64,000 bases of DNA from an uncultured Spirochaetota bacterium (GTDB taxonomy: Bacteria; Spirochaetota; Spirochaetia; SZUA-6; Fen-1364). The stretch covers positions 286,923-350,922 of the forward strand of contig CAVQAA010000010.1 in NCBI GenBank assembly GCA_963710335.1. The letters are read 5' to 3'. The translations under genes and the position numbers were made by a program. Below, piece by piece: positions 28,023 to 40,292 of the stretch; the stretch's first letter is position 1, and the number at the start of each line of letters is the position of its first letter. A model generated the notes under the pieces. The model was not told the DNA's origin. It saw nothing but the letters and a program-made list of their open reading frames with translations, and did no database searches.

Positions 28023-28967
28023 TCATTCATTTGCGAACGGCGTGTCGGTTGCAGGCAGCCGCGACAGGTCGTACGGCGTGGACTGGTAGACGTAGTAGTT
28101 GAGCCAGTTCGCGTACAAGAGATGGGCGTGAGAGCGCCACGTGACCAGCGGCTCGCGCTTCGGATCGTTGTCAGGAAAGTAATTCGCGGGAACTGCAATC
28201 GGCAGGCCCTTTGCGACGTCGCGGTCGTACTCCGCCTTGAGCGTGTGCCTGTCGTACTCCGGGTGGCCTGTGACGAACAGCATGCGGCCGTCCCGCGAGC
28301 AGGTCATGTACACCCCAGCCTCCTCGGAGATGGCCAGGAGCTTCAGGTCTTTCACGGCCTCGATGTCTTTTCTCCGCACCTCCGTGTGCCGGGAATGGGG
28401 CGCAAGAAAGCCTTCATCGAAGCCTCGCACGATCGGCTCGCTCGGCTCGAGGACCTCGTGGTGGAAAAGGCCGAACATCTTGGCCGGCAGGGGGTATTTC
28501 GGGACGCCGAAATGTCGATACATTCCCGCCTGGGCGCCCCAGCAGATGTGAAGCGTGGACCACACGCTTGTCCTGCTCCAGTCCATCAGGCGGACGAGCT
28601 CGTCCCAGTAGTCCACCTCCTCGAAGGGGAGCGTTTCCACGGGCGCTCCCGTGATCACCAGGCCGTCAAAGCGCTCACGCAGGACCCGGTCGAGGGGCTC
28701 GTAGAATGCGGCAAGGTGCTCCGGGGGCGTGTTCTTCGATTCATGGGTTTCCATCCGGATGAACGTGATGTCCACCTGAAGCGGCGTGTTGCCCAGCAAC
28801 CGAAGGATTTGTGTCTCGGTAACGATTTTCGTGGGCATCAGGTTGAGAACGGCAATGCGCAGCGGGCGGATGTCCTGATGGAGCGCCCTGTCCTTTGTCA
28901 TGACAAAGATGTTTTCCTGGGCGAGGGTTTTCCTGGCAGGCAGGTCATCCGGGATTCTTACTGGCAT
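28023..28967 (-). CDS. metA: Homoserine O-acyltransferase (MetA family, predicted acetyl-specific)
   Basis: [39 protein letters not shown]. Confidence 0.95.
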
Positions 28968-29037
28968 GCTGGCTCTCCTGTTCTCCGACTGGACCTATTC
29001 ATAGCGCCTAAGCGGCGCTGGTGGCAACCGGTTCACA

Positions 29038-29073
29038 AATAGACTACCATGATGATCGAATTGGTAGTATATT
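29038..29073. promoter_or_regulatory. Putative Rrf2 operator 1 (ACTAC-N16-GTAGT) between metA and DUF4395
   Basis: AT-rich inverted repeat, core 29043-29068. Closely matches the site upstream of metY. Confidence 0.65.
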
Positions 29074-29125
29074 GAGGGTGTGGCTCGACAGTCAAGAACT
29101 GAAGAGTCAAGCAGAGGAGAGAAAA

Positions 29126-29605
29126 ATGCCGGACGGGCTCGGGAAAGTCGACCATTCTTCGCTGAGGGTGAACCAGGCTGCAATCATCGTGCTTCTCCTG
29201 GTTGCCTTCATTGCCAGCGTCCCCTGGCTGGTAGCCGTCGTAGCAGTCGTGATGCTGGCCGGCTCGGCCGCGGGACGCCCCGGGTTCTTTTTCATCTATA
29301 CATGGCTGCTTCGCCCCGCGGGCCTGGTCAAGCCGGATTTGCTTGCAGATAACCCTGAGCCTCACAGGTTCGCGCAGGGCTTCGGAGGCGTTGTTGCGGC
29401 CGTGGCCGCGCTGAGCGCTCTGCTGGGAGCAGCGGTTTTCGGATGGGTCCTTGCCTGGCTGGTGATCGCGCTCGCCGCGCTGAACCTCTTTGCCGGCTTC
29501 TGCGCGGGCTGCGCCGTTTACTACTGGCTTCATCGACTGCAGGTGCCTGGCTTCTCGAAGAACCCGCCCTCGGGTGTGGTTCCCGGAATGAGGCCGCGAG
29601 CATGA
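29126..29605 (+). CDS. DUF4395-family membrane protein
   Basis: VD..LRVNQ, PHRFAQGFG, LAALNLFAGFCAGC. SD GAGGAG. Confidence 0.85.
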   Translation: MPDGLGKVDHSSLRVNQAAIIVLLLVAFIASVPWLVAVVAVVMLAGSAAGRPGFFFIYTWLLRPAGLVKPDLLADNPEPHRFAQGFGGVVAAVAALSALLGAAVFGWVLAWLVIALAALNLFAGFCAGCAVYYWLHRLQVPGFSKNPPSGVVPGMRPRA

Positions 29606-30015
29606 GCCTGCCGGAGCCGATTCTGAGACTCATCCTGGCGGCGGCCATCATCGCAGTCTCCCTTGCCGCGTGGGCCCTCGTGAGAGCCGTGGTTCTGGCC
29701 AGGGCAAGACGGGGCTCCGCCGGCCTTTCGGTTTTTCGTCCCGGCCTGCCGGGAATTCTTTACTTCACCACCCCGGATTGCATCACCTGCAAGGCGGCTC
29801 AACGTCCGGCGCTGAAAGACGTGGAAAAACGGCTTGAGGGCAGAGTCCAGGTGATCGAGGTCGATGCGGTTGACCAACCTGGCCTGGCAAAACAATGGAG
29901 CGTCCTGAGCGTGCCCACCACTTTCATCCTGGACCGTGACGGAACGCCGCGCCAGGTCAATCACGGCTTCGCCTCCACCGCGAAGCTGCTGAGCCAGTTG
30001 CAGAAGGTGGGCTGA
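29602..30015 (+). CDS. Membrane-anchored thioredoxin-family protein
   Basis: N-terminal TM, FTTPDCITC, SVPTT. ATGA coupling to the DUF4395 gene. Confidence 0.85.
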   Translation: MSLPEPILRLILAAAIIAVSLAAWALVRAVVLARARRGSAGLSVFRPGLPGILYFTTPDCITCKAAQRPALKDVEKRLEGRVQVIEVDAVDQPGLAKQWSVLSVPTTFILDRDGTPRQVNHGFASTAKLLSQLQKVG

Positions 30016-30046
30016 ACCGGCCGAACCGCCGCGGGCGAAAACTGCC

Positions 30047-30478
30047 TCAAATCTGGTAGTTGAGAATGCCCTCGCGCGCCCCTCGAAGCAGGGAATCCAG
30101 GGTTATCTTTTCCAACGCATCGTTCACTGCTTTTTCCAGGGTTCCCCACACTGAGTCAGCGGGGTGCATATACCCCGCATCGGCCCCTCGAGGCCCGCGC
30201 GGGTTTCCTGTTGCCGATATGTCCCCCTCGAGGGTCTGCACGATCTCGCGAAGCGTGATTGCGCGAGGATCCCGGGCAAGTGAATAGCCTCCGTGAGCCC
30301 CGCGAAAAGAGGTTACGAGGCTCACCCCGCGCAGGGGAATGACGAGCTTGCTGAGATATTTCTCGGATATTCCGTGAGTCTTTGCTATGTCCTTGAGGAA
30401 GACCGGCTCTCCCCCGTAGCGCAGGGCGAGCTCATACATGATCTTGAGCCCGTATTTGCTCCTCGTTGAAACGAGCAT
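30047..30478 (-). CDS. Rrf2-family regulator without cysteines (CymR-like)
   Basis: STRSKYGL, ISEKYL, RGAHGGYSLA. No Cys. Ends NYQI. Confidence 0.9.
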   Translation of the reverse strand: MLVSTRSKYGLKIMYELALRYGGEPVFLKDIAKTHGISEKYLSKLVIPLRGVSLVTSFRGAHGGYSLARDPRAITLREIVQTLEGDISATGNPRGPRGADAGYMHPADSVWGTLEKAVNDALEKITLDSLLRGAREGILNYQI

Positions 30479-30498
30479 GTCACTTTTACCCGGTGAAA

Positions 30499-30527
30499 AG
30501 GATAGCGTGCGGCGAAGCAGGAGTCAA
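30499..30527 (-). promoter_or_regulatory. sigma70 promoter of the Cys-less Rrf2 gene
   Basis: Minus strand TTGACT-N17-TATCCT. Confidence 0.6.
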
Positions 30528-30544
30528 CGAAGCTGCCTCCGAGG

Positions 30545-31745
30545 CAGCGTTCTCAGTTGAACTCTCTAAATAATTAAATGGTAGCCCTTTGTCTTGAGAG
30601 TGTTGATGTCTTCGTTTTCGATCTTCCAGCGCGTGCGCGCCGCCCGCATCAGCTCTTCTACATTCTGCTCGCTTACCTCATGACTGCCGATGCAGGCGGT
30701 ATGGAAGCTCGTTTTTCCATCCTCGCCGCTGATACTCAGCTCAGCCCAATTGACGTTGAGGCTGTCATCGGAGTTCCGCAGCCGCACGCCGTTTGCCCAG
30801 CGGTAGCGCCAACTCTGGTGCTTGCGCCCTGTCCAGTTTCGACGCTCCAGCCTGTGCACCTCACCGAGTTTGTCCAGGGAGCCGATCTCCTCGTACAAGT
30901 AGCGCTGTGAATCCTCTTTGGCAGTGAACAGGTAGCCCATGTCCGCATCCAAGACCTCCTGGATCAAAGGCTGTGTTGCGTACAGGGCGTCGCCCAACAG
31001 TGTGATGTCCAAGTCGCTGTAGAGGGGGGCGATCTCTGTAAGCCATCGGTGCGCCGCCCGTTGTTCGCAGTCTTGCTTGTCCGTGCCGTCCTGCGGGCGG
31101 ATAAACTCAGGCTGTAACGGGATGACGTGGGGCACCCCAGGAGCCACTACCGCCGCCATCACGACACTGTGTGTATACAGTGTGCGTCCGTCCTTGTGCC
31201 GCGCTACGCTGCATTGATCGCAGTGCAATTTCTCGGAACTGAAGTACCCTGTGCCATCCAGAGCCACCAACAAGGTGTTGCCCAAGGAACGGAACTTCTC
31301 CAGCGCTTTCTCCTTGATCAGATACTCGCTTGTCTGCTGGAACACAGGCCGCAGCAACTGTGGGTCCACCGCGTCCAGGTGAGCGCGGATATGGTTGTCG
31401 CTGGGTAAACGTTCCACACCAAAGAGCGTACGGCCGTTGTTGCGACCCTGCGCCTGCTCCATGAGCTGTTGGTGGGCGAGAAACGAGGGGCTTTGGCAGA
31501 AGAAAACGCCGAAGGCACCTCGGGCAATATCCATGATCGAGTACTGACGGTTCTTTCCCTGCCGTTGGTCTGGAAAGGTCGCAATGGCGCTTCCAAGGAA
31601 GTCCAGCAGCTTCTGGTAGACCCCCTCTTTCTCTACCGTCACTGGGGCCATAGTAGCGCCCAGCCATCCACAAGTCTAGTACTAGACGGATGTTACCGGC
31701 ATCTCCCTGGATAGCTAACCTCAAGGTTCAAACTGAGAACTGCTG
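30545..31745 (-). mobile_element. ISNCY-like insertion sequence, 1201 bp, with terminal IRs and a 9-bp target duplication
   Basis: Left end CAGCGTTCTCAGTTGAAC versus reverse complement of right end CAGCAGTTCTCAGTTTGAAC. CCTCCGAGG direct repeat at 30536-30544 and 31746-31754. Confidence 0.9.
30566..31651 (-). CDS. ISNCY-family DDE transposase, probably C-terminally truncated
   Basis: FPDQRQGKN, QSPSFL, PSDNHIR, ALDGTGYFSS..C..C, KQDCE, LGDALY, RTRWKIEN..NTLKTKGYHL followed by an abrupt stop. Confidence 0.88.
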   Translation of the reverse strand: MAPVTVEKEGVYQKLLDFLGSAIATFPDQRQGKNRQYSIMDIARGAFGVFFCQSPSFLAHQQLMEQAQGRNNGRTLFGVERLPSDNHIRAHLDAVDPQLLRPVFQQTSEYLIKEKALEKFRSLGNTLLVALDGTGYFSSEKLHCDQCSVARHKDGRTLYTHSVVMAAVVAPGVPHVIPLQPEFIRPQDGTDKQDCEQRAAHRWLTEIAPLYSDLDITLLGDALYATQPLIQEVLDADMGYLFTAKEDSQRYLYEEIGSLDKLGEVHRLERRNWTGRKHQSWRYRWANGVRLRNSDDSLNVNWAELSISGEDGKTSFHTACIGSHEVSEQNVEELMRAARTRWKIENEDINTLKTKGYHLII

Positions 31746-31816
31746 CCTCCGAGGGGAAGGCTTTACCAGGCAGCCGTTTGCGTTATACCCTGACGTCTAT
31801 TAAGGAGGAAGTAGCC

Positions 31817-32674
31817 ATGAATAAGAAGCGTTTTCTTCTTGCAGCCGGGCTGTTTCTTGCCGTCGCCGCCGCCGCGCTTGCCGAAGATCCCTGGATGGTC
31901 CTGCCCCCGACACCCACTCTGCCTGTTCCTGCAAGGAGCGGCTATGCCCCAGTCAACAGCGTGAAAATCTGGTATGCAGAGTTCGGCAGTGGCGCCCCGG
32001 TGGTCCTGCTGCACGGCGGCCTGGCCAACTCGAACTACTGGGGATACCAGGTGCGGGCTTTGTCGGACCGCTATCGTGTGATCGTCATGGACAGCCGGGG
32101 CCATGGCCGCAGCACCCGCGACGACAGACCGTTCGGCTATGACCTCATGGCATCAGACGTGATCGCCCTCATGGACTTCCTGAAAGTGCAGAAAGCGGCC
32201 ATCGTGGGATGGAGCGACGGCGCAATCCTTGGTCTTGATATTGCGATCAATCACCCGGAGCGGATCACGAAGCTCTTCGCATTCGCAGCCAACTCCGACC
32301 CCAGCGGCGTTGCCGACATTGGCCAGAGCGTGGTTTTCAACGCGTACATTGCCAGGGCGGAAAAGGAATACCAGAAGCTCTCACCCACTCCCACTCAGTA
32401 CAAGGAGTTCCTGGACCAGATAGGGAAGATGTGGGAGACCCAGCCCAATTTCACCAGGGAGCAGCTGAAGGGGATTCGCGTTCCCACCTGGATAGTGGAC
32501 GCGGATCACGATGAGGCCATCAAGCGGGAGAACACGGAGTTCATGGCCGCGCAGATCCCCGGCGCCGGCCTCCTCATCCAGCCCGGAGTGAGCCATTTCT
32601 CGTTCCTCCAGGACCCGCAGCAATTCAACGACGAGGTTCTGCATTTCTTGAGCTTTGTCCCGGTCATGCCCTGA
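31817..32674 (+). CDS. Exported alpha/beta hydrolase
   Basis: Signal peptide, LHGG, DSRGHGRS, GWSDG nucleophile elbow, HF. SD AAGGAGG. Confidence 0.9.
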   Translation: MNKKRFLLAAGLFLAVAAAALAEDPWMVLPPTPTLPVPARSGYAPVNSVKIWYAEFGSGAPVVLLHGGLANSNYWGYQVRALSDRYRVIVMDSRGHGRSTRDDRPFGYDLMASDVIALMDFLKVQKAAIVGWSDGAILGLDIAINHPERITKLFAFAANSDPSGVADIGQSVVFNAYIARAEKEYQKLSPTPTQYKEFLDQIGKMWETQPNFTREQLKGIRVPTWIVDADHDEAIKRENTEFMAAQIPGAGLLIQPGVSHFSFLQDPQQFNDEVLHFLSFVPVMP

Positions 32675-32698
32675 GGGGGGGAACTTTCAGTCGCGCCC

Positions 32699-32746
32699 TG
32701 CAGGGGAGCGGCCGTTTTCGGCCATCCCCTGCATTTACTACTTTTT
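32699..32746 (+). terminator. Putative intrinsic terminator
   Basis: TGCAGGGGA..GGCCG-TTTT-CGGCC..TCCCCTGCA stem followed by a T-rich tract. Confidence 0.55.
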
Positions 32747-32749
32747 CAA

Positions 32750-32818
32750 TTGACAAATCTCAGTCCAAGTGAAATTATACTACTAATACTATAGACATTG
32801 TAGTGATTCGTCACTACA
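32750..32818 (+). promoter_or_regulatory. metY promoter region with putative Rrf2 operator 2
   Basis: TTGACA at 32750. ACTAC-N16-GTAGT at 32779-32804. Hairpin TGTAGTGA-TTCG-TCACTACA at 32799-32818. Confidence 0.65.
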
Positions 32819-32832
32819 GATAAGGAGAGGGT

Positions 32833-34128
32833 ATGGGCGACAATAAAAGCTATAAGTTCGAGACTCTGGCGCTCCATGGAGGCCAGGTCGTGGATCCTGC
32901 GACGACATCGCGCGGCGTGCCCATCTATAGGACGAGCTCCTACGTATTCCCGACAACCGAGAGGGCGGCCAATCTCTTTGCCCTGAAGGAGCTGGGCAAC
33001 ATCTACAGCAGGATCATGAACCCCACCCAGGACGTTCTGGAGCAGCGCGTTTCCCTGCTGGAAAACGGTGCCGCATCCGTCGCGTTTGCCTCAGGCACTG
33101 CGGCTATCTTCAACGCCATCGTGACAATCATGTGCCAGGGTGATGAGATCGTTTCCGCCAGCAACCTCTACGGCGGCACGTACACGATGTTCGACGCCAT
33201 CCTGCCCACCCTCGGCATCACCGTGAAATTCGTGAAGCACGATAACCCGAAGAACTTCGAAAAGGCGATAACGCCCAAGACACGGGCCTTGTTCATCGAG
33301 ACCATTGGCAATCCCGTTCTTGATTTTACCGACATTGCAGAGGTGGCGAAGGTGGCCCATGCGCATGGGCTTCCCCTCATCGTGGATGCGACTTTCACCA
33401 CTCCGTACCTGTTGAAGACCATCGACCACGGCGCCGATATCGTCATCAACTCCCTGACCAAATGGATGGGTGGACACGGCACCGCGATCGGCGGAATCGT
33501 GACCGATGCGGCCCGGTTCAACTGGAAAGACAGCAAGTTCAAGCTTTTCAACGATCCGGACCCCAACTACCACGGCCTGAGGTGGGCGCATGACCTGCCT
33601 GCCCCGCTGGCGCCAGTGGCTTTTGCGCTGCGGCTCCGCACGGTTCCCCTTCGCAATCTTGGCGCATGCACGTCCCCTGACAACGCGTGGATATTCCTCC
33701 AGGGGATCGAATCCCTTCCCGTCCGCATGGAGCGGCATTGCACAAACGCCCTTGCGGTGGCCCAGTGGCTGAAAAAGCACCCCAAGGTGGAATGGCTGCG
33801 CTACCCCGGCCTCCCGGAAGACCCGACGTATACGGTGGCAAGCAAGTATTTGAAGAAGGGCTTCGGCGGCATGGTGGTGTTCGGAATCAAGGGCGGGAAA
33901 GCGGCGGGAGAGAAGTTCATCAACAGCCTCAAATTGTTCTCCCATCTTGCCAACGTGGGAGACGCAAAGAGCCTGGCCTTGCACCCGGCAAGCACTTCGC
34001 ATTCGCAGCTTAGCGAGGAACAGCAGCGTGAGAGCGGGCTGACCCCTGAGCTGGTGCGCCTGTCCATCGGTCTGGAGCACGTGGACGACATCAAGGAAGA
34101 TATTGAACAGGCCCTGAAACAAGGCTGA
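32833..34128 (+). CDS. metY: O-acetylhomoserine aminocarboxypropyltransferase (sulfhydrylase)
   Basis: [50 protein letters not shown]. Confidence 0.95.
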
Positions 34129-34141
34129 GGAGAGAAAAGGC

Positions 34142-35071
34142 ATGAATATCAAAGGGAATGTCCTGGAGTTGATCGGCAACACTCCCCTGGTCAGATTGAA
34201 CCGGGTGAACGAAGGCTCGAAAGCGGATGTCGTCGCAAAGCTTGAATCTCACAACCCGCTTGCCAGCGTGAAAGACAGGATTGCGCTGGCCATGATCGAG
34301 GACGCGGAGAAGCGCGGCCTCCTGAAAAAGGGAAGCGTCATCGTGGAGCCCACCAGCGGGAACACGGGCATCGGGCTGGCGTATGTCGCCGCGGTCAAAG
34401 GATACCGATGCATCCTGACCATGCCGGAGAGCATGAGCGTTGAGCGACGCAAGCTCTTGAAGGTCTTCGGCGCGGAAGTGGTCCTGACACCGGCGCCTCG
34501 CGGCATGGGAGGAGCAATCGAAAAAGCCCGGGAGATCCTGGACGCCACCCCGGATTCCTTCATGCCCCAGCAGTTCGAGAACCCGGCCAACCCGGAGGTC
34601 CACCGCAAGACCACCGCTGAGGAAATCTGGAAAGACACCGAAGGCAAGGTGGACATCCTGGTGTGCGGTGTGGGCACGGGAGGAACCATCACGGGGGTGT
34701 CCGAGTTCATCAAGAAAAGGAAGAAGGATTTTCGGTCCATAGCCGTGGAGCCGTCCAAGTCCCCTGTCCTCTCCGGCGGAAGCCCGTCCCCCCACAGGAT
34801 CCAGGGCATCGGCGCCGGGTTCGTGCCGGGCGTGTACAACAAAAGCCTGGTCGATGAAATCATCAAGGTGGACGATGAGGACGCGGGAAAGACCGCGCGC
34901 AGGCTTGCAAAAGAGGAAGGCATCCTGGTGGGCATATCTTCAGGCGCCGCGGCGTGGGCCGCGCTGGAGGTGGCAAAGCGCCGGGAAAGCGCCGGCAAGC
35001 TGATTGTGGTGGTGCTGCCGGACACCGGGGAACGGTACCTGAGCACCTGGCTGTTCGAGGACGGCGCCTGA
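34142..35071 (+). CDS. cysK: Cysteine synthase A
   Basis: [50 protein letters not shown]. Confidence 0.97.
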
Positions 35072-35074
35072 AAC

Positions 35075-35551
35075 ATGCCTTTCCAGATGTCCACGCGGGG
35101 CCGCTACGGGGTAAGGCTCATGGTGGCCCTTGCGCTGGCCTACGGCGGCAGGTCCAGCCTGCTCAAGGACATTGCCCGGCGTGAAGGGATATCGGAAAAG
35201 TACCTCGGCCAGATCGTCATTCCGTTGAAGACGGGAGGGCTTGTGGTCGCCCAGCGCGGCTCCCACGGGGGGTATTCACTTGCGCGGCCCCCGGAGGATA
35301 TAACGGTGCGTGATGTCGTTGAGGCCATCGAAGGCCGCATCGCCCTGGCGCCGTGCACCGGAGAGGCTGCCTCGGACCCGGAATGCATTGAAAGCCCGTC
35401 CGCGTGCGAGCGGGCAACCACGTGCGTCGTGACGCGCGTGTGGAAGAAGCTCCAGGAGGACATCGAGGAATCCCTGGCCTCCTTCACCCTGGCCGGCCTT
35501 GCGCGGCAGGCGCGGGAGCTGGAGGAAAGGTCCTCGAACTACGTGATCTGA
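35075..35551 (+). CDS. Rrf2-family regulator with four cysteines (IscR-like, potential Fe-S)
   Basis: STRGRYGVR, ISEKYL, RGSHGGYSLA, C-x8-C-x6-C-x5-C. Ends NYVI. Confidence 0.9.
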   Translation: MPFQMSTRGRYGVRLMVALALAYGGRSSLLKDIARREGISEKYLGQIVIPLKTGGLVVAQRGSHGGYSLARPPEDITVRDVVEAIEGRIALAPCTGEAASDPECIESPSACERATTCVVTRVWKKLQEDIEESLASFTLAGLARQARELEERSSNYVI

Positions 35552-35567
35552 CGGAGGTGCCTCGCCC

Positions 35568-36641
35568 ATGAAGAGGCGTGTGGTCGTTGGCCTGAGCGGG
35601 GGCGTGGACTCCTCCGTGGCCGCTTACCTGCTCAAGCAGGCGGGCCACGAGGTTGTCGGCGTCACCATGATGATATATTCCGGCACCCGGCCGGGAGTGC
35701 CGGGGGTGGATTCCTGCTACAGCCCCGGAGAAGGGGCGGACGTCGAGTACGCTGAATCAGTGTGCCGCACGCTGGGGATCCCGTACCGCACGCTGGATCT
35801 GAAAAAGGAGTTTCGCGCCTGGGTGCTGGACTATGCCCGCTCTGAATATCTTGCCGGCAGGACCCCCAACCCCTGCGTCCGCTGCAACCAGCTCGTGAAG
35901 TTCGGGCTCCTGGTGGACCGTCTCTCGCAGACGGCGGGGCTGGACTTCGACTCATTTGCCACGGGCCACTACTGCAGGGTTTTCCAGACCCCTGAGACCG
36001 GCCGGTTCGGCCTCCAGAAAGCCGCGGACCCGCTGAAGGACCAGTCGTATTTCCTCTGCATGCTCTCCCAGGAGCAGCTCTCACGGATCCTGTTCCCCCT
36101 GGGTACCTTTGCAAAGGCCGAGGTGCGAAGGATTGCGCGCGAGGCCGGTCTTTCCACCCACGACAGGCCGGAGAGCCAGGACTTTGCCGCCGGCGGTTAC
36201 CGGGAGGTCCTGGAGGCGCAGGAGAACGCGGGCCGCATCGTTGACCAGGACGGGAATGTGATCGGCTCCCATCGGGGGATCTGGGGCTACACGATCGGTC
36301 AGCGAAAAGGGCTTGGGGTCGGCGGTGGGGAGCCGCTGTACGTGACTGAGATCGACGCGAAAACCAACACGATCGTCGCGGGCCCCGAAACGCGACTGTA
36401 CCGCACCCGCCTTTCCGTCGGGTCGGTGAACTGGGTGAGCCGTGAGCGGCCCGAGGGCCCCATCAGGGTCGGCGCACGGATCCGCTATCGCAACCTCGAA
36501 GCGCCCGCGGTCGTTACCCCGCTGTCGGACGGCGGGGTAACGGTGGAGTTTGACCAGCCGCAGCGCGCGGTTGCGCGCGGCCAGATGGCCGTTTTTTATG
36601 ACGGAGACGTGCTCCTGGGCGGAGGCGCCATAGACGAATGA
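35568..36641 (+). CDS. mnmA: MnmA-family tRNA 2-thiouridylase (atypical cysteine pattern)
   Basis: GLSGGVDSSV, TPNPCVRCN, ATGHY, KDQSYFL, YTIGQRKGL. Has ESQDF in place of the usual ..ICF. Confidence 0.9.
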   Translation: MKRRVVVGLSGGVDSSVAAYLLKQAGHEVVGVTMMIYSGTRPGVPGVDSCYSPGEGADVEYAESVCRTLGIPYRTLDLKKEFRAWVLDYARSEYLAGRTPNPCVRCNQLVKFGLLVDRLSQTAGLDFDSFATGHYCRVFQTPETGRFGLQKAADPLKDQSYFLCMLSQEQLSRILFPLGTFAKAEVRRIAREAGLSTHDRPESQDFAAGGYREVLEAQENAGRIVDQDGNVIGSHRGIWGYTIGQRKGLGVGGGEPLYVTEIDAKTNTIVAGPETRLYRTRLSVGSVNWVSRERPEGPIRVGARIRYRNLEAPAVVTPLSDGGVTVEFDQPQRAVARGQMAVFYDGDVLLGGGAIDE

Positions 36642-37684
36642 GCATGGAGCGCGACGCAGCCGCGGATCTTCGCCGCTACTCGCGGCAGGTCCTGCTTCCC
36701 AAGATCGGTGCCGAAGGGCAGCGTCGGCTGGGAAGCTCCCGCGTGGTTGTGATGGGCGTGGGCGCCCTGGGGACCGCGCTTGCCTCCCTGATGGTGAGGG
36801 CGGGCTGCGGGACCGTGCGCCTGGTGGACCGCGACTTCATTGAGCTGGACAATCTGCAGCGTCAAACCCTCTTCGATGAGCAGGACATATCCGCGGGCCT
36901 GCCCAAAGCGGTGGCAGCGGCGGAAAAACTCCGCCGCGCCAACACCAGCGTGACGGTGGAGCCCATCGTGGCTGACGTGACGCCGGCCAACATCCTGCAG
37001 CTCATCCAGGGATGTCATGCCGTCCTGGACGGCCTTGACAACGTTGAGACGCGCCTCCTCCTGAATGACGCATGCCTGAAGACGGGCGTGCCGTGGGTCT
37101 ACGGCGCGGCAATCGGCATGACGGGAGCAACCATGCCTTTCATTCCCGGGCAGGGACCATGCTTTCGCTGCATCGTTCCCACGCAGCCCGCCCCCGGCGC
37201 CCTTCCCACGTGTGAGACTGCCGGAGTTCTGGGCACCGTGCCCCAGATAGTCGCGGCTTTCCAGGTCACCGAGGCAATCAAGCTTCTGACGGGCCATGAA
37301 GCCGACATCGTGCCCCAGATGAGATACGTGGACGCCTGGGCAGGGACCGTCGAGGCGCTGGACATTCGCAAGGGCGGGGAACCCTGCCCGGCGTGCGACC
37401 AGTCCCGGTTCGAGTTCCTGGAGGAGCGCAAAGCAGGTGGGAGCGCGAAGATGTGCGGCCGCACTGCCGTCCAGGTGGATCCGGGGAAAGTGGCAAGCCC
37501 TGATTTCCAGGCGCTCTCGGCAAGGCTTTCGGCGCTCGGGGAGGTCAGCTTCAACGCTTACATGCTCAGGTTCCGAACGGCGGAGAAGGAGATCGTTCTT
37601 TTTCCCGACGGACGGGCCATCATCAAGGGAACCGGGGACGAATCCGCCGCCCGGGCCCTTTACTCCCGCTTCATCGGTGCCTGA
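36638..37684 (+). CDS. ThiF/MoeB-family adenylyltransferase
   Basis: RYSRQ, GVGALG, DRDFIELDNLQRQ, PCFRC, PTCETAG, CPAC, FPDGRAIIKGT tail. Confidence 0.92.
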   Translation: MSMERDAAADLRRYSRQVLLPKIGAEGQRRLGSSRVVVMGVGALGTALASLMVRAGCGTVRLVDRDFIELDNLQRQTLFDEQDISAGLPKAVAAAEKLRRANTSVTVEPIVADVTPANILQLIQGCHAVLDGLDNVETRLLLNDACLKTGVPWVYGAAIGMTGATMPFIPGQGPCFRCIVPTQPAPGALPTCETAGVLGTVPQIVAAFQVTEAIKLLTGHEADIVPQMRYVDAWAGTVEALDIRKGGEPCPACDQSRFEFLEERKAGGSAKMCGRTAVQVDPGKVASPDFQALSARLSALGEVSFNAYMLRFRTAEKEIVLFPDGRAIIKGTGDESAARALYSRFIGA

Positions 37685-37701
37685 CAGCGGAAAAGGCGCT
37701 C

Positions 37702-38970
37702 ATGGATGCCGCTGCGGTTCGAAATGATTTCCCCGCACTCAGGACCCCCGGAGGTGAGCGGCCCCTTATCTACCTCGACAACGCGGCAACGACCCAGCGG
37801 CCAAGGCAGGTGCTGGAAACGATCACGTATGTCTACGAGCGGTCCAACGCGAACATTCACCGCTCGCCGCACGCGCTGGGCCGGGCGGCAACCGAGATGT
37901 ACGAGCAGGCTCATGCCGGGGTAGCGCGGTTCATCGGGGCGCGCAGTCCGCGCGAGATTGTTTTCCTTCGCAACACCACCGAGGCGCTGAACCTCGTTGC
38001 AGTCTCCTTGTGCCGCCCCGGGCCGCTTGCCTTTCGGCCCGGGGACCAGGTGATCATCACCATCATGGAGCATCACTCGGACTTCGTGCCGTGGCAGGCG
38101 ATGTGCCGCGAGGCCGGCCTGGACCTGCGGATCATCGGTCTTGGCGAGAACGGATCCCTGGACCTGCAGGAGCTTTCCTCCTCCCTGGGGTCGCGCACCA
38201 GGCTTGTGTGCTGCACCCATGTCTCCAATGTCCTGGGCACGATAAACCCGATAGCCGAGATCGCCGCGATGGCTCACGGGGCAGGCGCCCTTCTCTGCGT
38301 GGATGCCGCACAGTCGGTGCCCTGCATGCCGGTGAACGTGCAGGCCCTCGGCTGTGATTTCCTTGCCTTCTCGGGTCACAAGATGCTGGCCCCGTTCGGC
38401 GCGGGGGTGCTGTACGGAAGGGAGGAGCTCCTCCAGCAGATGCCTCCGTTCCTGTACGGAGGGGACATGATCGAAACCGTGACGGAAGCCGGGTCCACCT
38501 GGAACTCCCTTCCGTGGAAGTTCGAAGCGGGAACCCCTGACGTGGCAGCGGGCATTGCCCTGGGCGGGGCAACGGACAGGCGGACCGGCCACCGCCTGGT
38601 CGGCGCCGTGGACTACCTGGAGGGTCTGGGAATGGATGCGGTGCGGGCACACGAGACGGCGCTTCTGGACCGGCTGGTGAAGGGCCTGGGCCGGATTGCC
38701 GGCGTCAAGGTCACCGGGCCGTCCGACTGCGCGCAGAGGGCGGCGGCCGTTTCGTTCAGCGTGGAAGGAGCCGACCCGTTTGTTGTCGCGGAGCTTCTGG
38801 ACAACGAGGGAATATGTGTTCGCGCGGGCGGTCACTGCGCGTATCCTCTGGCTGCCCGGCTTGGCGTTGAAGGCACCGTGCGCGCAAGCCCATACATCTA
38901 CAACACTCCCGAAGAGATCGACATTTTTCTCGAGGTCACGGCGGACATAGTCCGCACCAGGCTTCGTTGA
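37702..38970 (+). CDS. Group II cysteine desulfurase (SufS/CsdA-like)
   Basis: YLDNAATTQ, MEHHS, DAAQ, SGHKML, KFEAGTP, RAGGHCA, RASPYIYN. Confidence 0.92.
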   Translation: MDAAAVRNDFPALRTPGGERPLIYLDNAATTQRPRQVLETITYVYERSNANIHRSPHALGRAATEMYEQAHAGVARFIGARSPREIVFLRNTTEALNLVAVSLCRPGPLAFRPGDQVIITIMEHHSDFVPWQAMCREAGLDLRIIGLGENGSLDLQELSSSLGSRTRLVCCTHVSNVLGTINPIAEIAAMAHGAGALLCVDAAQSVPCMPVNVQALGCDFLAFSGHKMLAPFGAGVLYGREELLQQMPPFLYGGDMIETVTEAGSTWNSLPWKFEAGTPDVAAGIALGGATDRRTGHRLVGAVDYLEGLGMDAVRAHETALLDRLVKGLGRIAGVKVTGPSDCAQRAAAVSFSVEGADPFVVAELLDNEGICVRAGGHCAYPLAARLGVEGTVRASPYIYNTPEEIDIFLEVTADIVRTRLR

Positions 38971-39041
38971 ACGCCGCTCCGTGACCATGGACAGCCTTCC
39001 CTGCCAACGCTACACTCCCGCTTGAGACAAGGAGACCGCGC

Positions 39042-40292
39042 ATGGCCGACAAACGGCTCCCGTTCACCCGGGACAAAATCGAGCAGATCGCAAAAACTCA
39101 CCCCACGCCATTCCACATCTATGACGAGAAGGCCATCCGGGGGAACGCCCGCGCGCTGAAGCAGGCATTTTCCTGGGCGGAGGGTTTTCGTGAGTTCTTT
39201 GCCGTCAAGGCTCTCCCCAATCCGCATATCCTTTCCATCATGAAGCAGGAGGGCTTCGGCGCGGACTGCAGCTCGCTCCCCGAGCTTCTCTTGTCGGACC
39301 GCGTTGGCCTGCGGGGGGAGCAGATCATGTTCACCTCCAACGACACGCCCGCCGGCGAATACGTGGAAGCGAAACGTCTCGGCGCCATCATCAACCTGGA
39401 TGACATCAGCCACATCGAGTTCCTGAAAAAGCACGCGGGAATGCCTGAGCTGATCTGCCTCCGTTATAACCCGGGTCCGCTCAAAGGCGGCAACGCGATC
39501 ATTGGCACTCCGGAGGAGGCGAAATACGGCTTCACCCGGGAGCAGCTTTTCGAAGGGTACCGAAAGGCGCGCCAGCTGGGCGCCACGCGGTTCGGCCTGC
39601 ACGCCATGATCGCATCAAATGAGCTGAGCCTCGACTACCACTGGGACACGGCGCGAATGCTTTTCGACCTGGCAGCCGATCTCTCGAAAGACCTCGGTAT
39701 CCGGTTCGAGTTCGTGAACCTGGGCGGAGGTTTCGGCATTCCCTACAAGCCCGAGCAGACGGCAATCGACTGGCAGGCTCTTTCCCGGGGGATCCAGGAG
39801 GCATACGAGGCCAAGGTCAAGGCCCGCGGCCTGCACCCGCTGAAAGTCTACATGGAGAGCGGGCGGGCAATCACCGGACCCTACGGATACCTGGTGAGCC
39901 GCGTCCTCCATCTCAAGCACACGTACAAAGACTACGTCGGGCTGGACGCGTGCATGACGAATCTTGCCCGGCCCGCTTTCTACGGCGCATACCACCATAT
40001 CACCGTGCTGGGCAAAGAGAACGTGACGGCCAGCCGGGTGTACGACGTCACCGGCTCGCTGTGCGAGAACAACGACAAGTTCGCCATCGACCGACCCCTG
40101 CCCCCCGTGGAGGAAGGCGACCTGATCGTGATCCATGATACGGGCGCGCATGGCTGGGCAATGGGCTCGAACTACAACGGCAAGCTGCGCTCCGCGGAGC
40201 TCCTGCTGCAGCCGGACGGCTCAGTCAGGCAGATCCGCCGGGCCGAGAGCGTGGAGGATTATTTCGCCACCTTGGAGTTTCCGTCAGCGTGA
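39042..40292 (+). CDS. lysA: Diaminopimelate decarboxylase
   Basis: TPFHIYDE, FAVKA, NLGGGFGIPY, ESGR, GSLCENND, GAHG..MGSNYN. Confidence 0.92.
   Translation: MADKRLPFTRDKIEQIAKTHPTPFHIYDEKAIRGNARALKQAFSWAEGFREFFAVKALPNPHILSIMKQEGFGADCSSLPELLLSDRVGLRGEQIMFTSNDTPAGEYVEAKRLGAIINLDDISHIEFLKKHAGMPELICLRYNPGPLKGGNAIIGTPEEAKYGFTREQLFEGYRKARQLGATRFGLHAMIASNELSLDYHWDTARMLFDLAADLSKDLGIRFEFVNLGGGFGIPYKPEQTAIDWQALSRGIQEAYEAKVKARGLHPLKVYMESGRAITGPYGYLVSRVLHLKHTYKDYVGLDACMTNLARPAFYGAYHHITVLGKENVTASRVYDVTGSLCENNDKFAIDRPLPPVEEGDLIVIHDTGAHGWAMGSNYNGKLRSAELLLQPDGSVRQIRRAESVEDYFATLEFPSA

Follow-up and report, generated by a model that had tools for sequence, protein, structure and literature searches.

In Bacillus subtilis the cymR gene, as we take it, directly precedes the yrvO-mnmA pair. 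The cited sections of PMC5372745 describe dedicated desulfurases in this organism, with yrvO placed upstream of mnmA. In Staphylococcus aureus the C-terminal tail of CymR (...GYMFYI) is reported to enter the active site of CysK, where the terminal Ile occupies the place of the substrate (bioRxiv 10.1101/2024.09.19.614015). In Clostridium perfringens the operon cpe1786(rrf2)-iscS-iscU-trmU is described as being induced 3- to 6-fold on cysteine limitation, its Rrf2 protein being 50% identical to CymR and 37% to IscR (PMC2940859). Here we report on a gene run of a related kind, metY-cysK-rrf2b-mnmA-thiF-sufS2, found in a 64,000-nucleotide (nt) stretch of a spirochaete genome (G000, contig C10, positions 286923-350922; this whole stretch is referred to as the window). 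We think it fairly probable, judging from sequence features, that the run from metY to sufS2 is a CymR-like sulfur-status regulon and a variant of the Firmicute arrangement. The first-pass annotation of this DNA had proposed an undescribed regulon; the kind is known, from the Bacillus cymR-yrvO-mnmA genes with CymR-CysK and from the C. perfringens operon. The feature that is apparently undescribed, and worth following, is a class of MnmA proteins lacking the last conserved cysteine.

The genome is 5.4 Mb long in 27 contigs (97% complete, 8% contamination), and the public genomes nearest to it are metagenome assemblies titled Spirochaetia or Spirochaetota. The host is best read as a peat or soil spirochaete living as a sulfide-dependent anaerobe. 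Genes were called from an open reading frame (ORF) listing together with Pfam and NCBIfam profile scans at curated cut-offs. The features on which the regulon reading depends are as follows.

32750-32778, + strand: predicted sigma-70-type promoter of the metY run (TTGACA-17-AATTAT with TG before the -10; 10 of 12 matches)
32779-32804, both strands: operator 2, upstream of metY (palindrome with 2 mismatches, matrix score 41.0)
32833-34128, + strand: metY, O-acetylhomoserine sulfhydrylase (TIGR01326, 604.6 bits, cut-off 495.1)
34142-35071, + strand: cysK, O-acetylserine sulfhydrylase A (TIGR01139, 475.7 bits, cut-off 350.95)
35075-35551, + strand: Rrf2b, regulator inside the metY run (PF02082, 125.3 bits)
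35568-36641, + strand: mnmA (NF001138, 388.7 bits, cut-off 284; TIGR00420, 332.3 bits, cut-off 236.95)
36638-37684, + strand: thiF/moeB-type E1-like adenylyltransferase (PF00899, 244.9 bits; NF009123, 319 bits, below its cut-off of 510)
37702-38970, + strand: SufS2, class-II (SufS-family) cysteine desulfurase (TIGR01979, 494.1 bits, cut-off 475.1)
28023-28967, - strand: metA, homoserine O-acetyltransferase (PF04204, 463 bits; NF047918 MetA_acetyl, 488.2 bits, cut-off 460.5)
29043-29068, both strands: operator 1, in the metA/DUF4395 divergent region (perfect palindrome, matrix score 38.8)
30047-30478, - strand: Rrf2a, regulator (PF02082, 111.2 bits)

The six genes from metY to sufS2 form a single run on the + strand, and all genes named in the first-pass annotation lie where it had placed them, with the gaps of at most 17 nt or overlaps that it had noted. 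The successive distances are 13, 3, 16, -4 and 17 nt, the negative value arising from the start of thiF, which overlaps the mnmA stop by 4 nt. The product of metA, O-acetylhomoserine, is the substrate of MetY.

The operator-like motif that had been seen both in the metA/DUF4395 gap and before metY proved to be a 26-bp palindrome, ACTACCA-N12-TGGTAGT, present at both predicted promoters. Operator 2 directly follows the -10 element and lies 29 nt before the metY ATG, while operator 1 overlaps the -10 of the predicted metA promoter (a promoter-like site on the - strand, 29095-29066); relative to these predicted promoters both sites are in a repressor-type position. We built a weight matrix on all 26 positions; the 17 sites that went into it precede metY or metA in this genome or a relative, and the two scored window sites are among them. 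With this matrix the window sites score 41.0 and 38.8, the next best site in the genome 18.5 and the best site in the reversed genome 14.7. By the 26-position matrix the palindrome is thus restricted to the metY and metA promoters within the genome. Bare half-sites are not rare, since allowing up to 2 mismatches gives 3 matches in the genome and 7 in its reversed copy. The palindrome was found upstream of metY in all 13 loci tested (this genome and 12 relatives), including relatives' loci without Rrf2a, and in four of five metA regions (this genome and three of four relatives), being visible by eye in the fifth. Riboswitch or T-box control was also considered and was dropped, as no Rfam family reached its gathering score within the window.

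Both Rrf2 proteins end in an aromatic-x-Ile tail (...NYVI in Rrf2b, ...NYQI in Rrf2a), which agrees, as a sequence feature only, with the CymR tail. Among 29 Rrf2 proteins of these and related clusters, 28 have this end and one ends in Val. The best NCBIfam match of Rrf2a is CymR itself (NF047409), at a score below the cut-off. Since cysK ends three bases upstream of rrf2b and the tails are of the NYxI form, the CymR-CysK mechanism is the natural reading, and Rrf2b and Rrf2a are best read as CymR-like regulators whose tails would dock in CysK. Rrf2a is free of cysteine. Rrf2b has four cysteines (Cys94, Cys104, Cys111 and Cys117), and Cys94, Cys111 and Cys117 align with a C-x6-C-x5-C pattern of the Rrf2 proteins in distant clusters. 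This pattern, with three cysteines clustered past the start of the dimerisation helix, we take to be that of Fe-S Rrf2 proteins of the IscR/NsrR type; Rrf2b is below the IscR equivalog cut-off (88.5 bits against 207.55). The sequence suggests that Rrf2b combines a CymR-type tail with Fe-S-type cysteines, and that it may sense Fe-S. Two further Rrf2 paralogues are present in the genome. The third (contig C25, 359573-359974) has four cysteines and an aromatic-x-Ile end (...QDFCI); the fourth, on contig C21, has the tail ...VTSCS, without aromatic-x-Ile.

The first-pass annotation had called the MnmA of this run a paralogue, which it is not. Its gene is the sole mnmA in the 97%-complete genome, and in a sample of 25 family genomes an MnmA match was found in 24, none having two full-length copies. 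All three MnmA domains are present (PF03054, PF20259 and PF20258), and the AF2 model has a pLDDT of 95.9, with isolated three-residue strands at residues 49-51 and 205-207. The PP-loop motif SGGVDSS spans residues 10-16, of which S10, G11, G12, D14 and S15 are invariant in the MnmA alignment. MnmA is probably the only tRNA 2-thiolation (s2U34) enzyme of this genome, where a TtcA-like PP-loop gene scores below the cut-off.

MnmA types in the literature are given as C-DxxC-C, CC-CxxC-C and a variant without the first motif (cited sections of PMC7025502, PMC8053098 and PMC11784392), and in the same sources, the last of them a review of December 2024, the last Cys is regarded as an essential ligand or persulfide carrier. 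In the window's MnmA the motif TPNPCVRCN supplies Cys103 and Cys106, a CxxC of the C-type kind that agrees with the [D/C]xxC pattern (Asp99/Cys102 in Escherichia coli). The last catalytic or ligand cysteine (Cys199 in E. coli, Cys200 in Thermus thermophilus) is missing: in the alignment to 2DER, Ala207 stands opposite E. coli Cys199, the loop (...ESQDFAAGGY) is shortened by three residues, and no Cys follows residue 164. Nor does the protein fit the C-type pattern CC-CxxC-C (Shigi 2020), having a single first-motif cysteine, Cys50, and the CxxC without the last C. The same loss is common to the family relatives, to the distant clusters L147-L150 and to genomes G003, G013, G019 and G024.

We surveyed this feature in the best 150 cluster representatives drawn from 1.84 billion proteins, 142 of which cover both motifs. 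The ...SQDF... loop without the last Cys was observed in 65 of these 142 nearest representatives (one of them turned canonical under a stricter pattern), and all 65 have a Cys at position 50. The first-motif Cys is missing in 15 of 69 canonical representatives (Fisher p 3e-5 against the class without the last Cys, the kin not being independent). Cysteines 50, 103 and 106 are the only invariant ones of the class. In a FastTree phylogeny 64 of 67 members grouped together at a split with weak support (SH 56), so that the class likely has one origin. Apparently, these MnmAs make up a large coherent class outside the published D-type/C-type scheme; a full-text literature search found no description of an MnmA class without the last Cys, which is not proof of novelty. 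Cys164 (DQSYFLC) was considered as a substitute ligand and rejected, being Tyr or His in the distant clusters and not enriched in the class; its apparent invariance was an artefact of the DQSYFLCM search pattern used to fetch loci.

The ThiF-family gene is also the sole copy in the genome. Its product has the motifs GVGALG, C175xxC178 and C250xxC253, which we take to be the nucleotide-binding Gly motif and the cysteine pairs of E1-type enzymes; in the alignment C175 and C250 are invariant, and C178 and C253 vary little. The protein also has an added C-terminal domain, some 90 residues long, with a near-invariant Cys273. Neither Pfam nor the PDB gave a match to its last 93 residues, the PDB matches ending at residue 256, and a protein atlas search with this domain returned best scores of at most 0.89, to unnamed clusters only. 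ThiF has no rhodanese domain of the MoeZ/Uba4 kind, PF00899 being the only domain found. It scores 231 bits to TIGR02356 (ThiF/MoeB) and 46.8 bits to TcdA (cut-off 304), and a TcdA-like tRNA dehydratase was rejected on these family scores.

The first-pass annotation had also reported the window to be without ThiS/MoaD, cysE and sulfite reductase genes, and this is so. Genome-wide, there are three GG-ended ThiS/MoaD carriers, none linked to the operon: one inside moaA-moaD-moaE, one between a 2-hydroxyacid dehydrogenase and a KDPG-type aldolase gene, and one adjoining the gene of a BNR/sortilin-like protein. Because moaA-moaD-moaE needs MoeB and there is no other E1 in the genome, the sole ThiF must serve MoaD. 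A CysE-like gene (171 bits, below the cut-off of 210.65) ends in ...GEGI, a tail that appears to be of the CysK-binding type. No NIR_SIR sulfite reductase match was found in the genome, with which direct use of sulfide is consistent. There are three TusA-like genes; ThiG gave a 30-bit partial match only, and the SufE family gave no match in the genome. Outside the window (L095:9043-10711; about 469.7-471.4 kb on contig C21), two genes that come just after an orphan ThiS-like gene and a MarR-like one look like the mercury-methylation pair hgcAB: the first encodes a CdhD-like protein that has C-terminal membrane helices and contains NVWCAAGK, the second a 2x[4Fe-4S] ferredoxin.

SufS2 lies outside the suf operon, which is sufCBDS on contig C21, and shares 49.5% identity with the SufS encoded there. 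Its motifs SGHKM and GGHCA are, as we assume, the PLP-Lys and active-site Cys motifs of class II desulfurases. The desulfurases of this genome are each paired with likely clients: sufCBDS, nifS-nifU, a class-V enzyme with ThiI, a class-V enzyme with AIRS/SelD-like, and SufS2 with MnmA and ThiF. This layout of one desulfurase per client, together with the position of SufS2, favours SufS2 as the donor for MnmA, in the manner of YrvO-MnmA.

Next, we looked at the conservation of this linkage. Among 80 loci fetched with the window's MnmA as query, the order metY-cysK-rrf2b-mnmA was found in 14, all with spirochaete titles and with MnmA identity down to 54%, and in part in three more (L024, L027 and L035). 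The content downstream of mnmA varies among the family loci, thiF-sufS standing between mnmA and lysA in four loci only (L014-L017). In one close relative the thiF orthologue is broken in two and has an in-frame TGA (G016:C29:84275-85307, locus L138), being either a pseudogene or an assembly error. The window's ThiF type occurs in seven of 401 Spirochaetota genomes, this one included, and the other six come from two families. In all six, mnmA lies immediately upstream of the ThiF gene and an Rrf2 gene upstream of mnmA; sufS follows thiF in three of them. CysK is nearby in all four outside-family clusters that were fully fetched, and those of family f41, three in number, also have a protein closely related to MetY (54-74%). 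The protein identities to the window are 43-46% for MnmA, 44-51% for ThiF and about 45% for SufS. Because these are so low, the mnmA-thiF linkage must be either old or repeatedly selected. A recent insertion of thiF-sufS2 peculiar to the closest relatives was dropped as the sole reading, the same order being present in two other spirochaete families. Of the outcomes that the first-pass annotation had named as speaking against its proposal, one, a sole mnmA, is what we found; another, a linkage not conserved in relatives, is not, as shown by the 14 of 80 loci and the two other families. Its view of these genes as one conserved, co-regulated unit is borne out by the shared operator and by the linkage kept in relatives.

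MoaD and MoaE were present in all four outside-family genomes searched. The two f52 genomes have no full ThiF-family gene besides the linked one (a 20-bit match was also seen in one of them), and the two f41 genomes have the linked ThiF plus two more ThiF-family genes over the cut-off. In f41, sufS is followed by FdhD in one genome and by TusA-domain and Se/S-carrier-like genes in another (L148:10772-11569 and L149:4777-5600); by their annotation these are further sulfur-transfer clients. Of 80 metagenome loci with the ThiF type, 18 have a desulfurase-like gene downstream, five have CysK (about 70% identical) nearby, three have an Rrf2 gene directly upstream and two have mnmA adjacent. The difference between 18 and two loci out of 80 indicates that ThiF with a desulfurase is a more general module, which MnmA thus joins in spirochaetes.

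On the reading that we favour, the gene identities, their single copies, the operator, the conserved linkage and the tail and cysteine motifs are observed; the operator-binding protein, the signals and the sulfur donors are what we infer. One repressor site would be located at the -10 or start of two promoters, that of metA (with DUF4395-thioredoxin divergent) and that of metY-cysK-rrf2b-mnmA-thiF-sufS2, transcription from the latter perhaps running into lysA. The repressor would be Rrf2b, possibly Rrf2a too, and its C-terminal aromatic-x-Ile tail would dock in the CysK active site in the fashion of CymR. When sulfide is short, O-acetylserine would accumulate, the repressor would be released and the operon derepressed; an Rrf2b Fe-S cluster on the three conserved cysteines may be a second input. 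CysK and MetY would make cysteine and homocysteine straight from sulfide on acetyl esters. SufS2 would then take sulfur from cysteine to MnmA, for tRNA s2U34, and to ThiF/MoeB, for MoaD and other ThiS-like carriers. The operon would thereby be a non-Fe-S sulfur trafficking module co-expressed with sulfide assimilation, following a one-desulfurase-per-acceptor logic as in Bacillus. Coupling of tRNA thiolation to sulfur status, one of two alternatives offered by the first-pass annotation, is the one that fits best.

Several observations weigh against this reading. Both Rrf2 proteins miss the CymR equivalog cut-off of 195 bits (98.7 bits, and 110.2 bits for Rrf2a), and, to our knowledge, Bacillus CymR is without Fe-S cysteines. 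Most of the family's genomes do not have thiF-sufS2 next to mnmA, and family f52 carries mnmA-thiF without sufS. No SufE-type acceptor for the class II SufS2 was found in the genome, so that direct transfer is assumed, and the persulfide-receiving cysteine of the E. coli scheme is missing from MnmA. Finally, the gene neighbourhoods suggest that MnmAs of the class without the last Cys are usually without a partner desulfurase and may take no sulfur from one.

This last point comes from another phylum (reached via G425), whose 30 best MnmA loci (L254-L283) divide into 18 of the class without the last Cys and 12 canonical ones. A NifS-like gene lies within 1.5 kb in one of the 18 and in eight of the 12 (Fisher p 6e-4, the kin not being independent). 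LarE (TIGR00268) is near in six of the 18 and two of the 12, and ThiF-like genes in three and none, respectively. At locus L031 the MnmA gene stands among Thi4, LarE and HcyBio with NIL-ferredoxin, a neighbourhood that by its gene content is again one of sulfide-type chemistry. The LarE-family PP-loop gene (315-342 bits) was seen beside mnmA in two phyla (L031:1842-2681, L150:5970-6836 and eight of the 30 loci above); tblastn found no LarE homologue in the window's genome.

These loci bear on an alternative that we regard as possible, though doubtful: that MnmA takes sulfur from no desulfurase and would instead hold a [4Fe-4S] cluster on Cys50, Cys103 and Cys106, with hydrosulfide from environmental or metabolic sulfide on the free iron, SufS2 serving ThiF only. 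If sulfide were the donor, it would explain why this MnmA travels with the sulfide consumers MetY, CysK, HcyBio and Thi4. The three cysteines in question are the class's only invariant ones and the last Cys is absent, NifS-like neighbours are as rare as stated above, L031 has the company that it has, and the genome shows no sulfite reductase family match. The alternative is also in line with work on the described enzymes, in which Thermus C-type MnmA is reported as Fe-S dependent and holo E. coli MnmA as working with sulfide in vitro (PMC7025502, PMC8053098). However, a desulfurase gene is zero or one gene away from mnmA in the window's genome, in family f41 and in G003, and Thermus MnmA can do without its equivalent first-motif cysteines. 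In its general form the idea would make these proteins a third, undescribed bacterial s2U34 synthase class, C-CxxC, in which Cys50 replaces Cys199/Cys200 as the third [4Fe-4S] ligand and the sulfur is supplied by sulfide, or by something else than a persulfide relayed to the flexible loop; we put this forward as a tentative proposal only. Were it to hold, it would account for the class riding with sulfide-assimilating genes (MetY/CysK, HcyBio, Thi4, LarE, ThiF) and not with IscS/NifS.

It is very improbable that the linkage of mnmA-thiF-sufS2 to metY-cysK is a chance gene order without function. The patchy presence of thiF-sufS2 within the family and the variable content downstream of mnmA are compatible with chance, but the order is retained across three families at 43-46% protein identity, the genes are closely packed, two of them overlapping by 4 nt, one predicted promoter with one operator stands in front of them, and the analogous Firmicutes operons respond to cysteine limitation.

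We consider it very improbable that the thiocarboxylate of a ThiF-activated ThiS/MoaD-like carrier is the direct MnmA donor, with SufS2 loading ThiF as in TtuC-TtuB-TtuA or Uba4-Urm1-Ncs6. Such a relay could account for the overlap of mnmA with thiF, for their adjacency in the six Spirochaetota genomes outside the family, for the ThiF-like neighbours in three of 18 against none of 12 loci in the other phylum, for the two orphan GG-ended carriers and for an MnmA without a persulfide-accepting Cys. Against it, four relatives (92-96% complete) have an MnmA without the last Cys and no ThiF-family match over the cut-off, and therefore a ThiF-made thiocarboxylate cannot be the obligatory donor. Moreover, no cluster examined has a GG-ended carrier gene, carriers in the two f52 genomes searched were found only beside MoaE or ThiE genes, the ThiF type adjoins mnmA in only two of the 80 metagenome loci, and ThiF as the sole E1 is required for MoaD regardless.

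The other alternative of the first-pass annotation, that the MnmA-like protein, ThiF and the desulfurase make a protein thiocarboxylate or similar donor for CysK/MetY (of the CysO-CysM or HcyS-MetY type), is hardly credible: ThiF is linked to MetY and CysK here and, in the metagenome loci, to CysK (five of 80) and a directly upstream Rrf2 gene (three), but neither a carrier nor a JAMM peptidase is present in the window and related clusters, CysK by its family score is a canonical CysK and not a CysM, a CysE-like gene with a CysK-binding-type tail exists elsewhere, MnmA has all its tRNA-binding domains and is the only one in the genome, feeding cysteine-derived sulfur into cysteine synthesis would be circular, and relatives having such a route carry a separate, typical cluster. 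The last statement refers to other members of the genus, which have a different ThiF elsewhere. In L130:7328-10202 (G023) and L131 (G015), genes for a CysM-like protein, a JAB peptidase and a ThiS-ThiF-rhodanese fusion (482 residues) stand together; by its gene content L130 is a compact classical thiocarboxylate cysteine route, which is missing from the window's genome.

If the CymR-like reading is right, the operon shows a sulfide-dependent anaerobe tying the accuracy of translation (s2U34) and molybdenum-cofactor sulfur to cysteine supply via one repressor. CymR-CysK control would then reach outside the Firmicutes and take in a regulator with signs of Fe-S sensing as well. A member of the large, coherent set of MnmAs without the cysteine central to both current mechanisms could settle the need for the Cys199 persulfide, and the Cys50/sulfide class, if true, would be well suited to testing the disputed Fe-S and persulfide mechanisms of MnmA.

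The remaining features around the run are the following.

29021-29605, + strand: DUF4395 membrane protein (PF14340, 101.7 bits)
29443-30015, + strand: thioredoxin-like, membrane-anchored protein with CITC (PF00085, 32.5 bits, on the translation)
30566-31651, - strand: transposase-like ORF (weak DDE matches under the cut-offs)
31778-32674, + strand: alpha/beta hydrolase (PF00561, 83 bits)
39042-40292, + strand: lysA-like decarboxylase (TIGR01048, 293.2 bits, below the cut-off of 297.9)

The probable true start of the DUF4395 gene is the ATG at 29127, which is preceded by GAGGAGAG and kept in relatives, and that of the thioredoxin-like ORF is probably near 29599. DUF4395 and the CxxC thioredoxin-like protein, divergent from metA at the operator region, are putative members of this small regulon, and the pair possibly acts in uptake or handling of a sulfur compound. 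The transposase-like ORF and the alpha/beta hydrolase, both omitted in the first-pass annotation, separate Rrf2a from metY. The former is found at none of the four closest relatives' loci, and contig C15 carries a copy of it at 83%; the ORF is probably a strain-specific insertion that parted the divergent Rrf2a from the operon it once faced. Among four close relatives the hydrolase was detected in L014 only. The lysA-like gene starts 71 nt after sufS2 and is a conserved downstream neighbour in related loci; it may have its own promoter, predicted at 38988-39016.

We compared the window with known systems. Like TtuA-TtuB-TtuC of Thermus and Ncs6-Urm1-Uba4, it links a PP-loop thiouridylase having three cysteines to an E1-like enzyme. 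TtuC also serves the thiamin and molybdenum-cofactor carriers. Unlike those systems, the window has no linked carrier, its thiouridylase is MnmA and not TtuA/Ncs6, and relatives with the same MnmA are without ThiF. From the protein-thiocarboxylate routes (CysO-CysM-Mec-MoeZ and HcyS-HcyD-HcyF-MetY) the window and related clusters differ in having no linked carrier or JAMM peptidase. In E. coli csdA-csdE/tcdA(csdL), too, a class-II desulfurase is described beside a ThiF-family enzyme tied to tRNA modification (PMC5372745), whereas the window's ThiF scores as ThiF/MoeB and not TcdA, and no CsdE/SufE was found in its genome. With Thermus thermophilus C-type MnmA, as described in PMC7025502, the window's protein shares the PP-loop, the CxxC in the helix after TPNP, the three-domain build and a first-motif Cys. 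It differs in that another residue stands in place of the last Cys (Cys200 in Thermus, Cys199 in E. coli), which is essential to both types so far studied, in a loop shorter by three residues, and in that its class has one invariant first-motif Cys where Thermus has a dispensable CC.

The C. perfringens operon, according to PMC2940859, likewise has Rrf2, desulfurase and MnmA/TrmU genes adjacent. However, its IscU makes it an Fe-S assembly system, while here sufCBDS and nifS-nifU are elsewhere and ThiF, MetY and CysK are included. The closest likeness is with the Bacillus cymR-yrvO-mnmA and CymR-CysK systems (B. subtilis, B. cereus and S. aureus), for which the cited sections describe an Rrf2 cysteine regulator beside a desulfurase and mnmA, a desulfurase dedicated to MnmA, CysK within the regulon and, for S. 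aureus CymR, an aromatic-x-Ile tail of the CysK-plugging kind (PMC5372745, PMC3519770, PMC6522883, bioRxiv 10.1101/2024.09.19.614015). Compared to these, the operator palindrome is different and the regulon is apparently limited to two promoters. The window thus departs from the known kind in five respects: metY and cysK are fused in, within the same predicted transcription unit; the sole ThiF/MoeB is included in it; the desulfurase is of class II (SufS-type), not IscS-like, and is placed after ThiF; the regulator has a CymR tail together with Fe-S-type cysteines and misses the CymR equivalog cut-off; and the MnmA belongs to another class.

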